Source: Candidatus Microgenomatus sp. (lineage in GTDB: Bacteria; Patescibacteriota; Microgenomatia; UBA8517). From it: DNA of 64,000 nucleotides. The notes beneath the pieces are model-generated. The model was not told the origin of the DNA and did not search any database. It was given only the letters and a program-made list of their open reading frames with translations. The stretch is taken from NCBI GenBank assembly GCA_020724585.1, contig DYGS01000001.1, positions 2,893-66,892 on the forward strand. Reading direction: 5' to 3'. Made by a program: the position numbers and the translations under genes. This document shows positions 2,032 to 42,829 of the stretch, one piece after another. Position 1 is the stretch's first letter. Each line of letters opens with the position of its first letter.

Positions 2032-4467
2032 TTAGCATTCACTGTGTCCACAGGCGTGGCATTTGGCACAGCCTTCCTGGAAAACTAGTGCAGAAGCTCC
2101 ACAACCTGGGCAGATATCTCCCGCTTTTTCTTTAGTAGCTGTCAAAAACAAACTTTTCTGCTGTTCTTCTTCAAGATGTGGAACTGTAGCTACAACTTCA
2201 CTGGTTTCAGCTTCTTTTTGTTTTGTCGACCCAAAAACATTAGGACTGCTGTGGTAGCCATTTATACCAAAGTTGTAATGAACTGATATTGCGGCGGCTA
2301 CTGCATCAGGCAAAGACTTTATTTTTGTTGGCCCAAAGCCAATTGTCCTTCTGCCGCCAATCCCCGATAATTGTTCCGCAATCTCTCTTGCTTTATTTTT
2401 TGCAGATACATCTCCCCTAAACTTTAGAGCGGTGGAGATTGTCCTGCCCAATGCTTCAGCCATCGCCGCAACATCTGATCCCGCCTTACCAACATTCACA
2501 AAGACCTCTAAAGGTTCTCCAATACCATCCTCATTTATCGTCACAAAAGCAGTGCCAACAGGGGTGTTTAATCTATAAGTTGCTCCTTTAACCATATATG
2601 GCCTTTCTCTTAGAGGGTCCTTACTATCGCTAACTGTTTGTACTTCGGTCTCTGTATTTTTTGTCCCCAGATTTAATACCTGCGCATCTTTACATCCATC
2701 TCTAAAAACAGTTATGCCTTTGCAATCGCTATCATACGCCTGCAGGTACGCAGTTTTGATATCCTCAGGCGTTACATCATGCCTTAGATTGATGGTCTTG
2801 CTGACCGCATTCTCCGTGTATTTCTGGAAAGCATCCTGCATCCTGATATGCCAAATAGGATCAATTTCGTGAGCTGTTCCAAAAATTGCTTTTACATTGT
2901 TGGGGATTCCTTCAATATTCCTAATGACCCCCTTCTCAGATACTTTGTTCATTAAATCCTCCGACCAAAAACCCCTTTCTTTTGCAATTTTTTCAAAGGC
3001 GGGGTTAACAAAAGTTAGTTTTCTATCCAAATGTTTATCTTTAACTATGTGCTGAAATGCAATCGCGAAAAGAGGTTCTATTCCTGATGAAGCCCCGGCA
3101 ATTATTGATATTGTTCCAGTTGGGGCAATTGTTGTAACGGTTGCATTTCTTCTTTTTGCTTGGCCTTTATAGATAGATTTATCAAAAAGTGGAAAGGCTC
3201 CTCGAACTTTAGCTAGTTTCTGCGTTTCCGAAACTGCGGCCTCTTGAATTGTTTTCATCACTTTTTCCCCAAGTTTTAACGCTTCGTCGCTATCATATGG
3301 AATTCCAAGTTCTAAAAGCATATCAGCCCATCCACCAACTCCAAGACCGATTCTTCTTATGGCAAAGACGGTATTTCTGATTTGCTCAAGAGGATAAGGA
3401 TTAACTTCAATTACATTATCCAAAAACCTGGTAGATAATCTCGCCGTTTTTTCAAGCCCATCCCAATCAACCTGACCATCTTTAACAAAATATGTTAAAA
3501 ATATACTTCCCAGATTACACGCATCAAAAGGATATAAGGGTTGCTCCCCACAAGGATTAGTTGCTTCAATCGGCCCCAAAGTTGGAGTTGGGTTTGCAGT
3601 ACTTTTGTTTATTTTGTCTATAAAAACAAGCCCTGGGTCTCCAGTCTTCCAGGCTCCGTCTGCAATTTCATTAAACACTTCCCTTGCAGACTTCTTATCA
3701 ACAACTTCCCCTGTTTTGGGACTGATCAGATCATAATCTGTATCGTTTTTATAAGCCTCCATAAAGGCGTCTGTTATAGCAACTGAAATATTAAAATTTG
3801 TAATTCCCCCTCCATCCTTGCAGTGAATAAATTCCATAATATTGGGGTGATCAACTCTTAAAATACCCATATTTGCACCCCTTCTTTTGCCTCCTTGTTT
3901 TACTTCATTGGTTGCGGCGTCAAAAATTCGCATAAAAGAAACGGGGCCGGAAGCTGTGCCGCTTGAAGTTTTAACAATAGAACCACTTTCTCTTAAACGA
4001 CTGAATGCAAAACCCGTACCTCCGCCAGTTTTGTGAATGATTGCTTGATACTTTAAGGCATCAAAAATTCCCTCCATAGAGTCCTCAACCGGTAAAACAA
4101 AGCAGGCCGAATATTGCAAGCCATTATTCGTTCCTGCGTTCATTAATGTTGGTGAATTTGGCAAGAATTTACGGCTCACCATGAGTTCGTAAAAATCCCT
4201 TGCAGTATTCAATACACTTTTTTTGTTTCCTCCCCATCTTGCTTCGCTGGAAGCCACATCCCAAGCAACTCTCCAAACCATATCTTCAGGAGTTTCAATT
4301 GGATTTAAATTGCTATCCTTAACCAAGTATCTTTCTTCCAAAACCTTCAAAGCCTGCTCTGTCCAATCACCTTTGGGCAAATCCAAGGGTCTGGCAGGCA
4401 TTGGTCCGACCTTCTTTATCACTTCTTCCCTTATTTTTTGGTAAGACGGAGCTTTGTAGTGCTTCAT
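2032..4467 (-). CDS. nrdJ: Adenosylcobalamin-dependent ribonucleotide reductase, class II (monomeric NrdJ type) with C-terminal zinc ribbon
   Basis: 811 aa. RNR core motifs (NPCGEQPL, active-site cysteines) and a C-terminal CPGCG...CAKCHACG zinc finger. Confidence 0.85.
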   Translation of the reverse strand: MKHYKAPSYQKIREEVIKKVGPMPARPLDLPKGDWTEQALKVLEERYLVKDSNLNPIETPEDMVWRVAWDVASSEARWGGNKKSVLNTARDFYELMVSRKFLPNSPTLMNAGTNNGLQYSACFVLPVEDSMEGIFDALKYQAIIHKTGGGTGFAFSRLRESGSIVKTSSGTASGPVSFMRIFDAATNEVKQGGKRRGANMGILRVDHPNIMEFIHCKDGGGITNFNISVAITDAFMEAYKNDTDYDLISPKTGEVVDKKSAREVFNEIADGAWKTGDPGLVFIDKINKSTANPTPTLGPIEATNPCGEQPLYPFDACNLGSIFLTYFVKDGQVDWDGLEKTARLSTRFLDNVIEVNPYPLEQIRNTVFAIRRIGLGVGGWADMLLELGIPYDSDEALKLGEKVMKTIQEAAVSETQKLAKVRGAFPLFDKSIYKGQAKRRNATVTTIAPTGTISIIAGASSGIEPLFAIAFQHIVKDKHLDRKLTFVNPAFEKIAKERGFWSEDLMNKVSEKGVIRNIEGIPNNVKAIFGTAHEIDPIWHIRMQDAFQKYTENAVSKTINLRHDVTPEDIKTAYLQAYDSDCKGITVFRDGCKDAQVLNLGTKNTETEVQTVSDSKDPLRERPYMVKGATYRLNTPVGTAFVTINEDGIGEPLEVFVNVGKAGSDVAAMAEALGRTISTALKFRGDVSAKNKAREIAEQLSGIGGRRTIGFGPTKIKSLPDAVAAAISVHYNFGINGYHSSPNVFGSTKQKEAETSEVVATVPHLEEEQQKSLFLTATKEKAGDICPGCGASALVFQEGCAKCHACGHSEC

Positions 4468-6482: not shown

Positions 6483-6890
6483 TTATTTTAATCTTTTAAT
6501 TGTTATATCGTCCATGGGATAATCTTTTTTATCAGCCGTAACCAATGTTAGTGAATTAACTTTGCATGTTGCAGCAATCATACAATCAGACATCCATATT
6601 TTTTTTGATTTTCTATTAAAAAGTTTCCTGTATTTAGCGGCTTCCTCTGCTATAACCCTGTCAACAGATAAAGTTTCGAGATTATCAAGAAGCATTTTTA
6701 ATGATATTTCTTCATCTGCCTGCGCCCCCTCTAAAAATTCTGCCACAACAATTGAAGAAAAAAATAAAGTTTTTTGTTCGATAGCCTTTCTGACCCAGCC
6801 CGCATATGGCTCAATTCCCTTGAAAGCATATACCAAAACATTCGTATCAGCTAAATAGCTTACCATTGACTCCTTATCTTTCTGCTCCAC
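6483..6890 (-). CDS. vapC: PIN-domain toxin (VapC-like)
   Basis: MVSYLADTNVLVY PIN N-terminal motif and downstream acidic residues. The start may be the internal Met at 6866 (MVSYLADTN). Confidence 0.7.
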   Translation of the reverse strand: MEQKDKESMVSYLADTNVLVYAFKGIEPYAGWVRKAIEQKTLFFSSIVVAEFLEGAQADEEISLKMLLDNLETLSVDRVIAEEAAKYRKLFNRKSKKIWMSDCMIAATCKVNSLTLVTADKKDYPMDDITIKRLK

Positions 6891-7153
6891 CTATATATTT
6901 CCTCTTTTGAATTCCAATTAGGATGATTATTAATCTTAATTGATCCAACCACTCTATTCGCCAATTTCTTTAAATCTTCTTGCTCCTGTTTTTCTAAAAG
7001 AAGTCTTATTATCGCCGCTTTTCTCAAATATTCAGATAAGCTTTCGCCTCGTTGGCTTGCCATTTGTTCTACATGGTATTTAAGCTGATCGGTTAGGGTT
7101 ATTTGAGTTCGAACAGCTTTGTCATTTTTAGAAAGCATAGGTATTTGTATCAT
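6860..7153 (-). CDS. vapB: Ribbon-helix-helix antitoxin (VapB/CopG-like)
   Basis: Small protein directly upstream of, and overlapping, the PIN gene. EYLRKAAIIRLLLEKQ is RHH-like. Confidence 0.55.
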   Translation of the reverse strand: MIQIPMLSKNDKAVRTQITLTDQLKYHVEQMASQRGESLSEYLRKAAIIRLLLEKQEQEDLKKLANRVVGSIKINNHPNWNSKEEIYRWSRKIRSQW

Positions 7154-7247
7154 GATGTATTAATCATACATCATTAAAATATTTCTGTCAATGCCAGTAT
7201 GCTTTTTATTGGCTTAAATTAAAAATCAATGTAAAATAGACATACTA

Positions 7248-9455
7248 ATGAAAAAATTGTTCCTCAAATTGATTGAGTTTTTAAAAGTGGAGAAAAATAG
7301 GAAAAAAACTATTTTCTTTTCTGCCTTGGGCGCATCTTTTTTGTGGCTTTTTTGGGGGCTTCCACTCCCTACTAAACTCTCCTCGCCTGATATACCCGTC
7401 TCCACCAAACTTTTTGACAGAAATGGAAATTTAATTTATGAAATTTACGCAGACACAAGAAGAACACCGGTTAAACTTGATGAGCTCCCCAACCATATTA
7501 AAAACGCAACAATTGCAATTGAGGATAAAGATTTTTACAAACATTATGGTTTTTCCTACACAGGCATGGCAAGAGCTGTTTGGAAAATTGCCACTCGCGG
7601 CAAACTAGAAGGAGGGTCAACTCTAACGCAACAGTTGGTAAAAAATGCTCTTCTAACACCAGAGCGAACGATCAGAAGAAAAGTCAGAGAATTTTTTTTG
7701 ACCATGATCGTTGAAGGAATTTATTCAAAAAATCAAATCTTGGAGATGTATTTAAATCAAATTCCCTATGGCTCAACGGCTTATGGCATCGAAGCCGCCT
7801 CCGAGCTTTACTTTAAAAAAGCGGCCAAAGACTTAAATTTAGCTGAAAGCGCTCTTTTGGCGGGGCTGCCGCAAAGTCCAACTAGATACTCGCCATTTGG
7901 AGCCAGACCGGAACTTGCAAAACAGCGCCAAAAACAAGTGCTTGATCAAATGGTTATCAATAAGTTCATTTCTCAAGAAGAGGCGAAAAATGCATATAAT
8001 CAGGAGCTAAAATATGCAAAAATTGAAGCGCCCAAAGCACCTCATTTCGCTCTCTGGGTAAAAGAACAACTGGTCGAAAAATATGGAGAAAAAAAAGTTG
8101 AGCAAGGGGGATTGCGTGTTACAACAACACTCGACCTGGAGCTGCAAAATTTTGCCCAAGAAGCTGTTGCAAGCGAAGTTGCTAAACTTGCCAAACAAAA
8201 TGTAGGAAATGGCGCCGCTATTGTCACCTATCCCGCTACCGGAGAGATCTTGGCGATGGTTGGAAGTAAAGATTATTTTGCCGAAGATGAAGATGGAAAG
8301 GTTAATGTAATTTTATCCGAACGCCAGCCGGGATCATCGATTAAACCCTTAAATTACGCTCTCGCACTGCAAGGGAAAAAAATTACACTGGCAACAACTT
8401 TTGCCGATGTACCAACTTGCTTTTCGGTTTTAGGACAGGCACTTTATTGTCCTAAAAATTACGATGGGACATTTCATGGCTTAACCCAAGTAAGATTTGC
8501 ACTTGGAAATTCATTTAATATTCCCGCCGTCAAAGTTTTGGCGCTAAATGGGATTGATGAATTTATTGAATTTGCCAGAAAAATGGGATTAACAACACTT
8601 AGCGATCCGAAAAGATATGGACTTTCATTAACTCTTGGAGGAGGTGAAGTTAAACCTTACGATATGGCAATCGCATTCGGTGTTTTTGCAAACGACGGGG
8701 TAAAACAGGATTTAATTGCAATCACTGAAATTTCAGACTGGAGGGGGAAAGTCTTGGAAAAAGTTGATGTTAACGATCTTAAATTAACTGGTGAAAAAGT
8801 TCTTGATGTCGGAACTTCTTTTTTAATATCGCATACCCTGCATGATAATAATGCCAGACAGCAAGCCTTTGGACCTTCGAGCTTTTTAAATGTCAAAGGC
8901 CACCCTGAAGTTTCAGTTAAAACAGGAACAACAAATGACAGAAGAGACAACTGGACTATTGGCTATACCAAACAAATTGTTGCAGTTACATGGGTTGGTA
9001 ATAATGATAACACTCCAATGAGCGGCGCCATATCCGGGGTTTCTGGTGCCTCCCCCATTTGGAATAAAATTATTGGCTTTGCATTAAGCAAAAGTGAAAA
9101 AGGAGAATATGGAGACGATGACGGCCACGCTTGGCCGCTTCAACCCGAAAATGTGATTGGAGCTAATATTTGCGCTGATACGGGAAGCGCTGTTGTTGAA
9201 GGAGTTAACTGTCCTCAAAGATTTGAATATTTCCTAGAAGGCACTGTTCCTACAACGATAAATGTTATTGGCCAAGATGTCACAATTTTTAAAGATACAG
9301 GTCAAATCGCAATAAGAGACTATTTGCCCGAACAGGTTGAGGTTCAAAACAAACCTTTATATACAGATCCAACTGGAGGAATTTATTGTCTTACATGTCC
9401 AATTTCCTCACAATCCGCAACAATCCGCTACCCTCTTACTAAAAAGAGTAATTAG
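7248..9455 (+). CDS. Class A penicillin-binding protein (bifunctional glycosyltransferase/transpeptidase, PBP1A-like)
   Basis: GT51 motifs (EDKDFYKHYGFS, GGSTLTQQL) and transpeptidase motifs SSIKP (SxxK) and KTGTT. Confidence 0.85.
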   Translation: MKKLFLKLIEFLKVEKNRKKTIFFSALGASFLWLFWGLPLPTKLSSPDIPVSTKLFDRNGNLIYEIYADTRRTPVKLDELPNHIKNATIAIEDKDFYKHYGFSYTGMARAVWKIATRGKLEGGSTLTQQLVKNALLTPERTIRRKVREFFLTMIVEGIYSKNQILEMYLNQIPYGSTAYGIEAASELYFKKAAKDLNLAESALLAGLPQSPTRYSPFGARPELAKQRQKQVLDQMVINKFISQEEAKNAYNQELKYAKIEAPKAPHFALWVKEQLVEKYGEKKVEQGGLRVTTTLDLELQNFAQEAVASEVAKLAKQNVGNGAAIVTYPATGEILAMVGSKDYFAEDEDGKVNVILSERQPGSSIKPLNYALALQGKKITLATTFADVPTCFSVLGQALYCPKNYDGTFHGLTQVRFALGNSFNIPAVKVLALNGIDEFIEFARKMGLTTLSDPKRYGLSLTLGGGEVKPYDMAIAFGVFANDGVKQDLIAITEISDWRGKVLEKVDVNDLKLTGEKVLDVGTSFLISHTLHDNNARQQAFGPSSFLNVKGHPEVSVKTGTTNDRRDNWTIGYTKQIVAVTWVGNNDNTPMSGAISGVSGASPIWNKIIGFALSKSEKGEYGDDDGHAWPLQPENVIGANICADTGSAVVEGVNCPQRFEYFLEGTVPTTINVIGQDVTIFKDTGQIAIRDYLPEQVEVQNKPLYTDPTGGIYCLTCPISSQSATIRYPLTKKSN

Positions 9456-31047: not shown

Positions 31048-31119
31048 TCCGCGATAGCTCAACGGCAGAGCAACAAGCTGTTAACTTGAAGGTTGTAGGT
31101 TCGAATCCTACTCGCGGAG
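31048..31119 (+). tRNA. tRNA-Asn (anticodon GTT)
   Basis: Cloverleaf folds: acceptor tccgcga/tcgcgga, D-arm gctc-aacggca-gagc, anticodon loop cTGTTaa, T-arm gtagg-ttcgaat-cctac, discriminator G. Confidence 0.8.
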
Positions 31120-31166
31120 CAGGATATAATTAAAATTTTAAAGTTTGATAATCTTTCTAATTTGAA

Positions 31167-39368: not shown

Positions 39369-39386
39369 GCGGTAAGGGAGAGATTC
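39369..39386 (-). repeat. partial duplicate of tRNA-Ser(GGA) 3' end (T-loop/acceptor 3' strand), 17/18 identical
   Basis: gcggtaagggagagattc matches gcggtgagggagagattc at 39483-39500 inside the tRNA gene, about 100 bp downstream of the tRNA 3' end. Confidence 0.7.
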
Positions 39387-39482
39387 ACCGTGCAATTACA
39401 ATACTTAGCACCATCGAATCGATCCCGATCGCGAGCAAAGCGAGCGATTTGCTATGCAAATCTTTAGCCTCGTTAAGCGGGG

Positions 39483-39570
39483 CGGTGAGGGAGAGATTCG
39501 AACTCTCGATAACCGTAAAGGCTATACGCGCTCTCCAAGCGCGCGCACTCGACCACTATGCGACCTCACC
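39483..39570 (-). tRNA. tRNA-Ser (anticodon GGA), class II with long variable arm
   Basis: Acceptor ggtgagg/cctcacc, 3-bp D-stem, anticodon stem cgcgc/gcgcg with loop tTGGAga, long variable arm, T-arm gagag-ttcgaat-ctctc, discriminator G. Confidence 0.75.
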
Positions 39571-39605
39571 GAGTCAGCAGACGAGGTGAAGGAGCACAAG
39601 ATTTG

Positions 39606-39628
39606 TCTTATGCGACCTCACCGAGTCA
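39606..39628 (-). repeat. duplicate of the 5' leader plus first 15 nt of tRNA-Ser(GGA)
   Basis: tatgcgacctcaccgagtcagc repeats 39556-39577 (ctatgcgacctcaccgagtcagc). Confidence 0.65.
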
Positions 39629-39629
39629 G

Positions 39630-40067
39630 CTATTTTTTCTTTCTTTTTTTCTCCCACTCCTTAATCATTATTGAAGCGTCTTTTAGCATGTCTTTTTCTC
39701 TTTTTAGCTCAAGTTTTTTTACTGCATTTGGATAATCAAACCAAGAAACATCCCCAATACCCAAAATTTCAGCTCCTGTTTTAAAAAATAAAAGATAGTA
39801 TATATATTTATAGGTCACGCTCTTGCCATTAACTGTTCCCGATCCCGCGGCTCTGCCTACTTCATCTAAGACTTTTATGTTCATGTTGCCCTGTTCTGAG
39901 GTGTGCCTTATAACGGCTCTGACAGATGATTCACCTCTTCTAACTGCAGTCTTTGGAATTTCCCAATCCCCGTCAACATTTTTTATAAGAAGATATAAAA
40001 TTTTACCGCGGCCTTCTTTAAAAATTACTGATCCTCCAATTAAAATCTCCCCATTCCCATTTTTCAT
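39630..40067 (-). CDS. hypothetical protein, possible degenerate NUDIX-fold
   Basis: GGSVIFKEGRGKILYLLIK...RRGESSVRAVIRHTSEQG loosely resembles a Nudix box, but the REUXEE core is not conserved. Confidence 0.3.
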   Translation of the reverse strand: MKNGNGEILIGGSVIFKEGRGKILYLLIKNVDGDWEIPKTAVRRGESSVRAVIRHTSEQGNMNIKVLDEVGRAAGSGTVNGKSVTYKYIYYLLFFKTGAEILGIGDVSWFDYPNAVKKLELKREKDMLKDASIMIKEWEKKRKKK

Positions 40068-40163
40068 ATTGGTATTTTACCATGAAAATGGCAAGTTTTG
40101 CTCAATCAGATTCGCAAAAGGCGGAGGATATAGGAATCCCCGCCCTAGGTGGGCTAACCTTAG

Positions 40164-40250
40164 CGGCGAGAGAGGGATTTGAACCCCCGTTCCGCAAATG
40201 CGGAGCATGGTTTTCGAAACCAGCCTGTTAGACCACTCCAGCATCTCGCC
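40164..40250 (-). tRNA. tRNA-Ser (anticodon CGA), class II
   Basis: Acceptor ggcgaga/tctcgcc, 3-bp D-stem ctg/cag with gagtggtctaa loop, anticodon loop tTCGAaa, variable-arm hairpin ccgca-tttg-cgg, T-arm ggggg-ttcaaat-ccctc, discriminator G. Confidence 0.75.
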
Positions 40251-40268
40251 TTGTTATTTATTAAAGTG

Positions 40269-40340
40269 TGTGCCCGACAAGAATCGAACTTGTATCTAAA
40301 GATCCGCAATCTTCAATTCTATCCGTTGAACTACGGGCAC
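40269..40340 (-). tRNA. tRNA-Arg (anticodon GCG)
   Basis: Acceptor gtgcccg/cgggcac, D-loop with GG, anticodon stem gaaga/tcttt with loop tTGCGga, T-arm acaag-ttcgatt-cttgt, discriminator A. Confidence 0.6.
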
Positions 40341-40359
40341 CTGTAGTTTGTATTATACT

Positions 40360-40899
40360 TCACTGAGGCAATTTTTTGGAAAACCAGTCAATAGCTTTAT
40401 CCAAATTTGATGGCGAGGCTTCCTCTTCAAGAAGATAATCTTTTAAGATTTTCCTTATATCCTCCTTATTTTCAGGTTTTATAACAAGCTCCATTCTGTT
40501 TGGAATTTTTCTTGTTTCAAAGACCAAAAGCTCTGTATCGTATCTCTTTGAAAACCAAAATCTTGTCAACATCTCCCATGGAGTTGCCCCTCCTGCAATT
40601 TTTACTCCCCTATCTGTGATTTTGTATTCAATAACCTCCGGTTCGACAGTTGACATAACATAATAGAGGAAAATTAAAGAAATTATAAGAATTACAGGCA
40701 TCGCCCCCTCTGCCAAAAACAAAATCAAGGAAACTATTCCTGCAATCGAAACAGTGGTTAAATAAAACTGCCTATCTCTTCTTTTAAATGGCCTTGAAGG
40801 TGCAATCCAAATCAATAAATCCTTTTCAAGTTCAGGCTTTTTGAATTTTGAAGTCTCAGCCTCATTACTCGAATTATTATTGGCAATATTATCACTCAT
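40360..40899 (-). CDS. hypothetical membrane protein (start trimmed to MSDNIANN)
   Basis: Two adjacent TM helices. The longer track ORF would run into tRNA-Ser(GCT). Confidence 0.4.
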   Translation of the reverse strand: MSDNIANNNSSNEAETSKFKKPELEKDLLIWIAPSRPFKRRDRQFYLTTVSIAGIVSLILFLAEGAMPVILIISLIFLYYVMSTVEPEVIEYKITDRGVKIAGGATPWEMLTRFWFSKRYDTELLVFETRKIPNRMELVIKPENKEDIRKILKDYLLEEEASPSNLDKAIDWFSKKLPQ

Positions 40900-40940
40900 A
40901 TCTAAATTATACCTCAAGTCTGATATAATTGCCTCTATTG

Positions 40941-41027
40941 GTGGGGTCGCATAGCCCGGTCCATTGCGGAGGTTTGCTAAATCTCTGAGCTGAAAAGCTC
41001 GCGCAGGTTCGAATCCTGTCCCCACCG
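40941..41027 (+). tRNA. tRNA-Ser (anticodon GCT), class II
   Basis: Acceptor ggtgggg/ccccacc, anticodon stem gaggt/atctc with loop tTGCTaa, variable-arm hairpin gagc-tgaaaa-gctc, T-arm gcagg-ttcgaat-cctgt, discriminator G. Confidence 0.75.
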
Positions 41028-41086
41028 CTCATATACATTCGCGATGTGGACAGTTTCGATGGTGCCAAGTAAAGAAAATGCACGGC

Positions 41087-41104
41087 GAATCCTGTCCCCA
41101 CCGC
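41087..41104 (+). repeat. exact 18-nt duplicate of tRNA-Ser(GCT) 3' end (gaatcctgtccccaccgc) followed by CA
   Basis: Identical to 41011-41028. No matching 5' half is present, so it is a fragment rather than a tRNA. Confidence 0.75.
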
Positions 41105-41123
41105 CAGTTCAATATGATTAAAA

Positions 41124-41205
41124 GGAAGGTGGGCAGGACGGTAATGCGCGAGTCTTGAAAACTCGTGAGCGTAAGCTCTAACAGGTTCGACCCCTGTACC
41201 TTCCG
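41124..41205 (+). tRNA. tRNA-Ser (anticodon TGA), class II
   Basis: Acceptor ggaaggt/accttcc, anticodon stem cgagt/actcg with loop cTTGAaa, variable-arm hairpin gagc-gtaa-gctc, T-arm acagg-ttcgacc-cctgt, discriminator G. Confidence 0.75.
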
Positions 41206-41211
41206 CAAAAT

Positions 41212-41245
41212 TAAGCCTAACTGGCAATAGTTAGGCTTTTTATAT
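41212..41245. terminator. bidirectional rho-independent terminator (taagcctaac-tggcaata-gttaggctt with T-runs on both strands)
   Basis: 10-bp stem hairpin between convergent tRNA-Ser(TGA) (+) and comF (-). T-tracts follow on both strands. Confidence 0.6.
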
Positions 41246-41816
41246 TTTTAAAATCTGCATTTTGAAGTGTTTTTTTGGCCTCATTAATTGTGGTTCCTGT
41301 TGTATAAACATCATCAAAGAGTAGTATATTGGGGATAGTATATTGTATATAGAGTTTGTTTACTTCAAAAACATTTTTAAGGTTATTTTTTCTATCAACC
41401 CCTTTTAGTCCAACCTGATGTTTTGTTTCTTTGGTTTTTATTAGTAAATCAGGAATAAATTTTAGGTTTAATTTTTCTGCAATTTTTTTACCCAAAATTT
41501 CCGTTTGATTGAAACCTCTAAAATTCTCTCTTTTTCTATCTAAGGGAATAGGAACCAAATTAGCATTATGCCACAAGCCATATGTTTTAAGCCTATCAAC
41601 ACAAATAGAAGCTAGTTCCTCAGCAATATCATATGCAAATTTGTATTTAATAGTAATTATTGCTCTTCTAATTACTCCTTTGTACTTAAATATTGAATAG
41701 TTATTATTTCTATATTGTCCCCTACGAACCTTTTCTAAACAATTTGGACAAATATATTTCCCTGAAGCACTACACTCCAAACACTTTTTAGGAAAAATAA
41801 AATCAAATAGACCCAT
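41217..41816 (-). CDS. comF: ComF-family protein (ComFC-like phosphoribosyltransferase-domain competence protein)
   Basis: N-terminal zinc finger CLECS...CPNCL and C-terminal PRTase motif LLFDDVYTTGTTINEA. Confidence 0.75.
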   Translation of the reverse strand: MGLFDFIFPKKCLECSASGKYICPNCLEKVRRGQYRNNNYSIFKYKGVIRRAIITIKYKFAYDIAEELASICVDRLKTYGLWHNANLVPIPLDRKRENFRGFNQTEILGKKIAEKLNLKFIPDLLIKTKETKHQVGLKGVDRKNNLKNVFEVNKLYIQYTIPNILLFDDVYTTGTTINEAKKTLQNADFKNIKSLTIAS

Positions 41817-41833
41817 TCTGATATATAATACTA

Positions 41834-41864
41834 TGTACTAAGTACTTTGTACTATGTACTGTAT
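41834..41864 (+). repeat. GTAC-rich short repeat (atgtactaagtactttgtactatgtactgta)
   Basis: 26/27 identical to 63886-63912. Member of a dispersed repeat family found at 7 or more loci. Confidence 0.7.
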
Positions 41865-42296
41865 ATGAAAGTTGTTAACAAAAAAGCAAATTTTAATTAC
41901 ACTCTATTTCCCGAAAGAATTGAGGCGGGCATTGCCTTAAAAGGAATTGAAGCCAAATCCTTTAGAGATAACAGAATTGATCTCTTAAACTCGTTTGTCA
42001 AAATAATTAATGGTGAAGTTTATTTAGTTAATGCCAATATCCCTGCAAAGGGCTTACAAAAGTATGATCCAACTAGAGCCAGGAAATTACTTTTACATAA
42101 ACGCGAAATCATAAAACTAATAACTAAAACGAAGCAACAAAAGTTGCAAATTGTGGCTGTTTCAATGTATAATAAGCATCGTAAAATTAAACTCGAACTA
42201 GCCTTAGCTAAGCCTAAAAGAAAGTTTGACAAGAAGGAGAGTATTAAAAAACATGATGTGCAACGCGACATTGAAAGAGAATTAAAAGGTCTTTGA
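41865..42296 (+). CDS. smpB: SsrA-binding protein SmpB (start trimmed to MKVVNKKANFNY)
   Basis: NKKANFNY...EAGIALKGIEAKS...KLLLHKREI motifs. The track ORF's extra 6 codons are translation of the GTAC repeat. Confidence 0.85.
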   Translation: MKVVNKKANFNYTLFPERIEAGIALKGIEAKSFRDNRIDLLNSFVKIINGEVYLVNANIPAKGLQKYDPTRARKLLLHKREIIKLITKTKQQKLQIVAVSMYNKHRKIKLELALAKPKRKFDKKESIKKHDVQRDIERELKGL

Positions 42297-42351
42297 GTTA
42301 AATTGAAAATTGAAAATTGTTAATTGAAAATTCCAAGCGTAGCTTGGACAT

Positions 42352-42733
42352 GGGGATGACCGGTTTCGACGGGAAGCTCTTTTAAAATAAGCAAGCCAAG
42401 TTTGATATAAACTTGTCAAAATGTATCAAAACTTAAAAGCAAAACAAATTTTTGCTTCTGTTAAGCCATACGCTGATATGCAATATGCATATCTTACTGT
42501 AAAGGCTTAAACAGCATTCTTGTATTTGGATTCCGACTGAATTTCAAGGGTGTCAACCAAATCGGAAGTAGTTTTTTATTCTTAGTTGTGGATAGAAAAC
42601 GAAATAATAACAACTTTACTTTTCATCATCCTGACAATTGGTTAGATAAAAAGGACATACAATAAATTGTCTAAGCTTGTAGAAATTTTTAAAAATGTAT
42701 TTTCGGATGAGGGTTCGATTCCCTCCATCTCCA
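42352..42733 (+). ncRNA. ssrA: tmRNA (SsrA), about 382 nt
   Basis: 5' end GGGGATGACCGGTTTCGACGGG (tRNA-like acceptor/D region). 3' end GAGGGTTCGATTCCCTCCATCTCCA (T-arm plus acceptor 3' strand pairing with the 5' end). Directly downstream of smpB. Confidence 0.8.
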
Positions 42734-42800
42734 CTCGCATTCGCTCGTTCCGATTTCAGGAATCGATAGCGCAAGTTATTGTGCTCCGTGTTTTGCACGC

Positions 42801-42817
42801 CGATTCCCTCCATCTCC
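42801..42817 (+). repeat. exact 17-nt duplicate of tmRNA 3' end (cgattccctccatctcc)
   Basis: Identical to 42717-42733, located 68 nt downstream of the ssrA 3' end. Confidence 0.75.
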
Positions 42818-42829
42818 TCCTAAGATGGT

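Follow-up and report, generated by a model that had tools for sequence, protein, structure and literature searches.

Transfer RNA (tRNA) genes and the transfer-messenger RNA (tmRNA) gene are classic landing sites of mobile DNA, and the known systems that use them need an integrase and carry kilobases of cargo. Related arrangements are produced by mobile endonuclease elements, which replace the 3' end of a gene and leave the displaced end downstream, as the GIY-YIG element in Allomyces atp6 does, and some casposons use tRNA 3' ends. Here we describe short (about 50-110 nt), non-coding, hairpin-forming modules, each closed by a copy of the gene end, at three tRNA-like genes within a 64,000-nucleotide (nt) stretch of Candidatus Microgenomatus sp. 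(assembly GCA_020724585.1, contig DYGS01000001.1, positions 2,893 to 66,892), which we call the window. Like tyrosine-integrase islands and prophages, the modules come with a direct repeat running from the T-loop to the 3' end, in which the proximal copy completes the gene and the displaced copy lies distally; they likewise sit at tmRNA and tRNA-Ser genes, and they can occupy a target in tandem. Unlike those islands, however, the module insert is only 57-94 nt long, lacks an integrase, and contains a conserved antisense copy of the core together with an apex hairpin. In addition, the modules have a mirror-image family at tRNA 5' ends, and a search of 2.9 million viral contigs revealed none with the module motif.

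Duplicated gene ends enclose a structured module

Gene calling in the window with ARAGORN and Rfam gave seven tRNA-like genes. In three of them, tRNA-Ser(GGA), tRNA-Ser(GCT) and tmRNA, the last 19 nt are repeated 57-94 nt downstream, the two copies being identical at 17, 19 and 18 of 19 positions, respectively. No end copy was found at the tRNA-Asn, tRNA-Ser(CGA), tRNA-Arg(GCG) and tRNA-Ser(TGA) genes of the window. A first-pass annotation of this DNA had reported partial duplicates of these three 3' ends, 17-18 nt long. They are real and lie where it had placed them, but the block extends over 19 nt, tRNA positions 56-74; over the span given earlier for tmRNA, the match is 17/17. The annotation had correctly recognised this block as the T-loop-to-3'-end segment that integrative elements typically duplicate, and its further report of a 5' duplicate at tRNA-Ser(GGA) is confirmed as a 22-nt repeat in which positions 39557-39578, the leader and tRNA positions 1-14, recur at 39609-39630. 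As a chance control, we compared the last 18 nt of all seven genes with random 150-nt pieces of the window. The best matches were 8-10 nt, with a maximum of 15 when 18/18 matches, which are presumably the true copies, are left aside. The observed values were 18, 17 and, for tRNA-Ser(GGA), 15, this last value being so low because of a 2-nt offset at the end. Inspection of window tRNA genes by eye, and of tmRNA, showed that the full CCA is not encoded and that position 74 is a C in those inspected; the last nucleotide of the duplicated block is always this position-74 C.

The spacers between gene and copy are homologous to each other at all three window sites. They share the motif TCGATRGYGC-N(13-21)-TGCACG-NY-GAWTC, which occurs three times in the window against an expectation of zero, and a covariance model (R1) built from 48 family members recovers the three window copies with E-values of 1e-15 to 1e-18. 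The order of parts in such a 3' module begins with X1, the gene's own positions 56-74, and continues with a linker (TCR-N4-7-YTCG), an imperfect antisense copy of positions 56-74 (X'), an apex with the consensus TCGATRGYGC-AAnTAAGG...-TGCAC-GG (or A), and finally X2, the distal sense copy of positions 56-74. The tRNA gene is left intact next to the module. In more than 45 non-redundant members the left edge is exactly C56 (...GGTT|CGAATCC versus ...GCACGG|CGAATCC), and in most members the right edge of the identity block is C74. The first-pass annotation had raised the possibility that the DNA between the copies is what remains of lost elements, an idea that does not survive this comparison: the 57-94 nt are a conserved module with a tailored antisense arm and a conserved apex hairpin. 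The annotation itself had named a larger conserved structured element behind many different tRNAs as evidence that would count against its proposal, and this is the arrangement that we observe.

Each window spacer folds as a long hairpin that is topped by a small one, its 5' part being paired with the distal copy, and hairpins of the 3' type are more stable than shuffled sequences (z about -2). In an alignment of 63 members, whose fit to the model favours pairing, 81.4% of cells were paired compared to 73.3% after shuffling, and the covariation score was 0.230 compared to 0.102, the observed score being reached by 0 of 500 shuffles. When the arms were slid as a control, the paired share dropped to 20-59%. 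The pairs made with T-loop positions 57 and 59 show compensatory changes only (CG 61/UA 2 and UA 57/AU 2/CG 2/GC 2, respectively), and the outer five pairs (positions 70-74) covary, with the discriminator pair being CG 28/UA 23. The strand opposite positions 62-69 is mostly mismatched. The hairpin is composed of two constrained arms around an internal loop, a pattern unlike the one that decay of a perfect palindrome would leave.

The stem X':X2 is a replica of tRNA positions 56-74 that covaries with the tRNA at its locus. Where the T-loop is variant, X' tracks its complement, so that CAAA is answered by TTTG and CGAT by ATCG; the latter is seen in the window, where X' of the tmRNA module reads ATCG and the tmRNA T-loop CGAT. 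Since the complement of variant T-loops is followed, X' is an antisense arm, and the idea that it is a degenerate copy of the 5' half of the tRNA's own T-arm was ruled out. Other candidates for the module were also rejected. A tiny open reading frame (ORF) in the apex loop, with a Shine-Dalgarno-like TAAGG and an NTG start before CACGG, would encode a peptide that varies with the tRNA and has inconsistent stop positions. Neither a K-turn, an archaeal bulge-helix-bulge intron, hammerhead or other ribozyme cores nor a sigma-70 promoter in the apex fits the aligned sequences, and the Rfam 15 covariance models, including those for group I introns and tRNA-like structures, gave no match in the spacers at E-values up to 1.

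Comparison of related modules showed that the distal copy is preserved. At the orthologous tRNA-Gln loci L092 and L093, the unique upstream flank aligns. Their module bodies are about 21-23% different, while X2 has changed at 0 of 19 positions in both; about four differences would be expected for an unconstrained X2. Likewise, 27 pairwise comparisons of non-identical modules that follow the same tRNA end gave body differences of 14-41%, with X2 differing at only 3 of 513 positions. The differences between X2 and X1 that we examined are mostly C-to-T or G-to-A. As the distal copy remains identical while the body diverges, selection, gene conversion or ongoing recombination between the two copies must preserve its identity.

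A second, mirror-image family, to which the 5' duplicate at tRNA-Ser(GGA) belongs, is found at tRNA 5' ends, with members at 16 of 216 tRNAs in related loci, among them Ser, Thr, Leu, Gly, Asn, Glu and Arg. In these 5' modules an exact copy of the segment from +1 to the D-loop, 14-21 nt in length, lies 50-160 nt upstream of the gene and is followed by an apex of the AAGC-NNN-GCTT type (TAAGC-AAA-GCTTGG or AAGAC-AAA-TCTTG), a complementary strand, a spacer and the tRNA. In the predicted folds of nearly all of them, most of the copied 5' segment is base-paired, and the three tested had folding z-scores of -5.9, -4.4 and -3.1. At L072, three tandem 5' units precede tRNA-Ser(CGA) (5'-module spans 2175-2225 and 3735-3912); here identity sets in precisely at the mature +1, with no conservation of the leader. 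The two families thus mirror each other, both reading from distal sense copy through conserved apex, antisense arm and variable linker to the tRNA.

Distribution, arrays and cargo of the modules

To define the family, we scanned one genome per GTDB species and then Joint Genome Institute (JGI) metagenomes with the motif. Approximately 15 genome loci and 50 metagenome loci were true members, and further matches in high-GC genomes were attributed to chance. In total, the family comprises more than 60 Patescibacteria/Microgenomates loci and at least 17 tRNA species. The true members lie on low-GC contigs throughout, labelled mostly as Patescibacteria, Woesebacteria or Microgenomates and in a few cases as Gammaproteobacteria or "bacterium". 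The nearest named relatives of the window SmpB are in Woesebacteria/Microgenomates. Modules stand directly behind Tyr, all four Ser, Leu, Pro, Thr, Gln, Lys, Trp, Glu and Gly tRNAs as well as tmRNA. The covariance model finds only three copies in the 64 kb of the window, all at tRNA-like genes and 50-80% alike, and 87 copies in 533 kb of related loci. Apex similarity within genomes (0.55) does not differ overall from that between genomes (0.56), L072 excepted. In the literature searched, we found no published description of these modules, and a 2026 survey of tRNA introns in Patescibacteria does not mention them. The module family is widespread in bacteria of the candidate phyla radiation and apparently undescribed.

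The presence of modules varies among relatives that share the gene cluster. Four relatives have the gene order Ser-GGA, Ser-CGA, Arg, Ser-GCT, Ser-TGA, comF, smpB, tmRNA, with SmpB proteins 67-70% identical to that of the window and with unrelated flanks beyond these genes. A covariance search with filters off and E-values up to 1 detected no module at any gene of the cluster in these four relatives, and their gaps between Ser-GCT and Ser-TGA measure 1, 22, 24 and 61 nt, compared to 95 nt in the window. In the more distant but syntenic L072, modules lie behind Ser-GCT and Ser-CGA and none behind Ser-GGA, and although X and X' differ between its two copies, their apex loops are 84% alike. One relative, L143, carries a 5' module at the orthologous tRNA-Arg(GCG), where the window has none. 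A 2-kb gap without called genes after tmRNA in L142 was considered as a further candidate and rejected; it contains not a module but a 614-amino-acid (aa) ORF (6732-8576, minus strand, TTG start) that is missing from the gene calls.

Modules also occur in arrays and in decayed form. L059/L133 carry two perfect tandem units, and in about 15% of members a second unit, often truncated, follows X2. Solo or decayed copies away from intact tRNAs were seen at L096, L129 and L130. On one 519-kb contig (Ga0209431_10000002), X2 is split at two loci (L099, 8042-8150, and L113, 6715-6830) right after CGAATC by a 19-20-nt insert that folds as a small hairpin, CCTGTC-TGCC-GACAGG, and may be a smaller nested element. 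As a separate observation, at L120 (2945-3010) a further hairpin lies beyond a decayed tRNA-Trp X2, and after it comes the 3' end of another tRNA-Trp allele (ATTCCTACCACCCCTGC, the one seen in L069), an arrangement that looks like the fossil of an older gene end.

Kilobase-scale cargo is absent from the window, and cargo was seen only at L093 and L106, between units. At L093 (892-2891, minus strand), two co-oriented ORFs occupy 1.9 kb between two units that share a tRNA-Gln end. The products, one of 287 aa whose DUF4145 match is weak and sub-threshold and one of 276 aa with a TPR-like character, are not integrases, and the locus may be a small defence-type islet without a recombinase. At L106 (6980-7370), a small ORF, GIY-YIG by eye only, and then a degenerate module fill 0.37 kb within 33-nt direct repeats consisting of the tRNA-Glu 3' end and a terminator-like flank. 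Among loci with homologous upstream flanks, the DNA after X2 is never homologous. These two observations, cargo genes between tRNA-end copies and variable DNA beyond the distal copy, bear out the earlier suggestion that the sites are insertion hot spots.

Window features and the search for linked machinery

The coordinates of the tRNA-like genes and modules in the window are collected in Table 1.

Table 1. tRNA-like genes and module parts in the window (window positions)
Feature	Position	Strand	Remarks
tRNA-Asn	31048-31120	+	ARAGORN/Rfam
Ser(GGA) distal sense copy X2	39369-39387	-	17/19 identical to X1; two C-to-T changes
Ser(GGA) conserved apex hairpin P2	39388-39414	-	ATGGTGC...TTGCACGG
Ser(GGA) antisense arm X'	39415-39431	-	CGATCGGGATCGATTCG; imperfect pairing with distal copy
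Ser(GGA) linker of 3' module	39432-39447	-	TCGCTCGCTTTGCTCG; family motif TCR-N4-7-YTCG
Ser(GGA) extra 34-nt insert between X1 and linker	39448-39481	-	small hairpin GATTTGC-ATA-GCAAATC; only in this copy
tRNA-Ser(GGA)	39480-39571	-	positions 56-74 (X1) 39482-39500; positions 1-14 39557-39570
Ser(GGA) 5' module	39572-39630	-	leader copy 39623-39630; exact copy of positions 1-14 39609-39622
Ser(GGA) 5' module, inner parts	39585-39608	-	apex AGACAAATCTTGTGC 39594-39608; anti-acceptor CTTCACC 39585-39591; then spacer
tRNA-Ser(CGA)	40163-40250	-	ARAGORN/Rfam
tRNA-Arg(GCG)	40268-40340	-	ARAGORN/Rfam
tRNA-Ser(GCT)	40940-41028	+	X1 41010-41028
Ser(GCT) 3' module	41029-41104	+	linker 41029-41041; X' 41042-41058; P2 41059-41085; X2 41086-41104 (19/19)
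tRNA-Ser(TGA)	41124-41206	+	ARAGORN/Rfam
tmRNA	42352-42734	+	X1 42716-42734; smpB adjoins
tmRNA 3' module	42735-42819	+	linker 42735-42747; X' 42748-42765; P2 42766-42800; X2 42801-42819 (18/19)

Ten flanking ORFs were tested, and they gave NUDIX, DUF5673, ComF-like, Exo_endo_phos and bacterial PH-domain proteins as well as hypotheticals; no recombinase and no intI-like match was among them, in agreement with the first-pass annotation, which had seen no integrase at these sites. The gene order around the flanking ORFs, including smpB, is also found in module-free relatives. Elsewhere, a non-systematic reading of neighbouring ORFs brought up an XerD-like gene approximately 1 kb from one module (L052), and at L030 (1550-2635, minus strand) a large serine recombinase fragment runs into the 3' end of a tRNA-Tyr gene, one gene past a module-bearing tRNA-Thr. 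Apart from these two cases, nothing stood out as a linked recombinase in that reading.

Consensus matches to a promoter (40880-40908) and to a terminator (41213-41238) bracket tRNA-Ser(GCT), its module and tRNA-Ser(TGA). If both sites function, the module is transcribed within a tRNA operon and does not itself terminate transcription. Examination of the Ser(GCT) module as an intrinsic terminator was likewise negative: no T run follows X2, tRNA-Ser(TGA) lies downstream, and the terminator-like site is located beyond it. Two further repeats were seen in the window, an AT-rich overlapping palindrome and direct repeat (TACTATGTACTAAGTACTTTGTACTATGTACTGTAT) at 41821-41866 between comF and smpB, and short direct repeats (TTGAAAATTGAAAATTGTTAATTGAAAATT) at 42300-42335 just upstream of tmRNA, overlapping a promoter-like match.

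Insertion module or tRNA-associated RNA element

The sporadic distribution, the arrays, the decay, the nesting, the neighbouring cargo and the variable downstream DNA give the modules a mobile or recombinogenic look, and an antisense arm fitted to each tRNA, a structured hairpin and a preserved distal copy set them apart from passive scars and from ordinary transposons. The reading that we favour, at about an even bet (probability roughly 0.5), is that they are non-autonomous insertion modules specific for the T-loop or D-loop of tRNA genes, which carry a folded, att-like hairpin and are moved in trans. Such a module would enter at the T-loop (between positions 55 and 56) or at the D-loop of a tRNA gene and would rebuild the gene end, leaving the displaced copy in the distal position; a recombinase encoded elsewhere would move or copy it in trans, and cargo genes would sometimes come to lie beside it. 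In both families, the displaced gene end is locked into a long hairpin with the strand that the module supplies. This hairpin, with its paired inner and outer arms and mismatched centre, may act as a folded recombination site that imitates the duplex end of a tRNA gene, and in the transcript it may keep the extra gene end from pairing wrongly with the genuine tRNA.

Several described elements share parts of this logic. The folded attP of CTX-type phages, as used by integrative mobile elements exploiting Xer (IMEX), and the integron attC both have two inverted, imperfectly paired target-like copies with a loop between them and a mismatched centre; as in the modules, the site lies at the distal end of the insert, the recombinase acts in trans (which for the modules is presumed), and arrays build up at one attachment point. 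The module target, by contrast, is a tRNA gene end in place of dif or attI, the aligned modules lack the R''/R' consensus (RYYYAAC/GTTRRRY), they come with no intI, no demonstrated Xer link and no single-stranded DNA phage, and attC loops are variable whereas the module apex is conserved in sequence. The logic of the modules resembles that of a CTX-type attP or an integron attC, but they lack the defining sequence and protein features of both. Bacterial miniature inverted-repeat transposable elements (MITEs), REP/REPIN sequences and fungal mitochondrial double-hairpin elements are, like the modules, small, non-coding, hairpin-forming and patchy in distribution, and they have no transposase of their own. 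Unlike these elements, the modules are strictly confined to tRNA gene ends, and their inverted repeat includes the duplicated target. Moreover, the module termini (TCR... and ...GCACGG) do not form inverted repeats, 19 nt are duplicated compared to 2-10 bp for MITEs, and instead of many near-identical dispersed copies we found copies in one genome that are 50-80% alike. With mobile endonuclease elements the modules share a replacement gene end and an old end left behind as a fragment, and the small ORF at L106 recalls their GIY-YIG enzymes; most modules, however, have no ORF, and the hairpin architecture is foreign to those elements.

A number of observations speak against insertion modules moved in trans. 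No recombinase, transposase or reverse transcriptase was linked to the modules, and neither an excised form nor an empty and a filled site within one population was seen. Copies in the same genome are no more alike than copies from different genomes, except at L072, unlike what a recently active MITE would leave. An antisense arm that matches each tRNA individually cannot be accounted for by simple cut-and-paste movement, and neither cargo case has clean cassette borders, partial X copies lying ahead of the distal linker. The long-term conservation of the distal copy, and the 5' module common to the window and L072, fit a host function equally well. Counts of G.U and A.C mismatches (50 versus 58) were uninformative as to strand or RNA.

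The strongest competitor is a host element acting in cis on precursor tRNA, in which the arm would pair with the tRNA end or with the spare copy to form a switch, an insulator or a processing signal, and the apex would bind a protein or a ligand. We regard this as a serious possibility, though one on the doubtful side. It would account for a module that sits between two tRNAs bracketed by promoter-like and terminator-like sites without being a terminator, for hairpins that beat shuffled sequences (z about -2 in 3' modules and from -3 to -6 in 5' modules), for the covariation, for a distal copy that stays identical to the tRNA while the rest diverges, for the start of identity at the mature +1 rather than in the leader at L072, and for an internal loop at a conserved position, unlike random decay. 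It does not readily account for the sporadic distribution, in which different tRNAs carry modules in each genome and the four syntenic relatives have none, or for tandem arrays, decayed solo copies, nested insertions and adjacent cargo, all of which resemble mobile DNA; in addition, no Rfam family matches, and there is no G.U bias that would mark the sense strand. Base pairing could also be central in another way: the antisense arm may guide the element to the end of a tRNA gene or transcript and retarget it through changes in the arm, while the sense copy would form a two-state switch gating tRNA maturation, so that the element would be a guide-dependent mobile hairpin or a tRNA-specific riboregulator. 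We consider this combination rather unlikely.

The origin proposed by the first-pass annotation, attachment-site scars, supposes that integrase-bearing islands or prophages once occupied the three genes and were later deleted, leaving attL-attR remnants. Its factual basis stands, in that the duplicated segment is of the att type, no integrase is present and the sites behave as hot spots; furthermore, the identity block spans the T-loop-to-3'-end segment, as it reportedly does at tRNA integration sites of the T-loop type, tmRNA and tRNA-Ser are common targets, and cargo lies between tRNA-end copies at two related loci. The scar origin itself fails to explain boundaries shared by more than 45 non-redundant cases. 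More than 60 cases have in common 57-66 nt of conserved content and identical junctions, unlike the outcome of independent deletions, structural constraint acts on the antisense arm and on the apex hairpin, the two cargo loci and the flanking ORFs tested hold no integrase, and viral contigs lack the motif, so that we find scars improbable. Little credence can likewise be given to a miniature transposon whose 19-bp target-site duplication arose from staggered cuts measured from the T-loop by a casposase/Cas1-like or other ruler. As in casposons and CRISPR Cas1-type integration, the target duplication is long and of fixed length, an invariant 19 nt with its left edge fixed in GGTT|CGAATCC, and units are present in some genomes, absent in others and sometimes in tandem. 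However, we saw no terminal inverted repeats, and no transposase or Cas1-like match in the ten flanking ORFs tested; the module body has an arm complementary to its specific target, which is not expected of a fixed transposon; the 5' family duplicates 14-22 nt and so has no fixed length; and a passive target-site duplication would not be expected to remain conserved over approximately 22% divergence. Chance repeats or an assembly artefact, finally, are suggested only by the shortness of each repeat and are exceedingly unlikely, given the chance controls (the motif count of three versus zero and the random window pieces), the same architecture in independent assemblies from many projects, and the same locus in a JGI contig of the source genome.

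In practical terms, the modules yield pseudo-att sites and partial tRNA matches, by which island-finding programs and the annotation of tRNAs in metagenome-assembled genomes can be misled. Taken together, our results show an att-type duplication that a 60-90-nt module, with an antisense arm matched to each target, reproduces by itself and to the nucleotide, whether at the T-loop or at the D-loop, across many tRNA species of Patescibacteria, a group with reduced genomes. If the modules are mobile, a trans-acting recombination system would seem to have gone unrecognised, and genes could be placed at little cost behind strong tRNA promoters; if they are RNA elements, they would represent a new kind of control over tRNA maturation.

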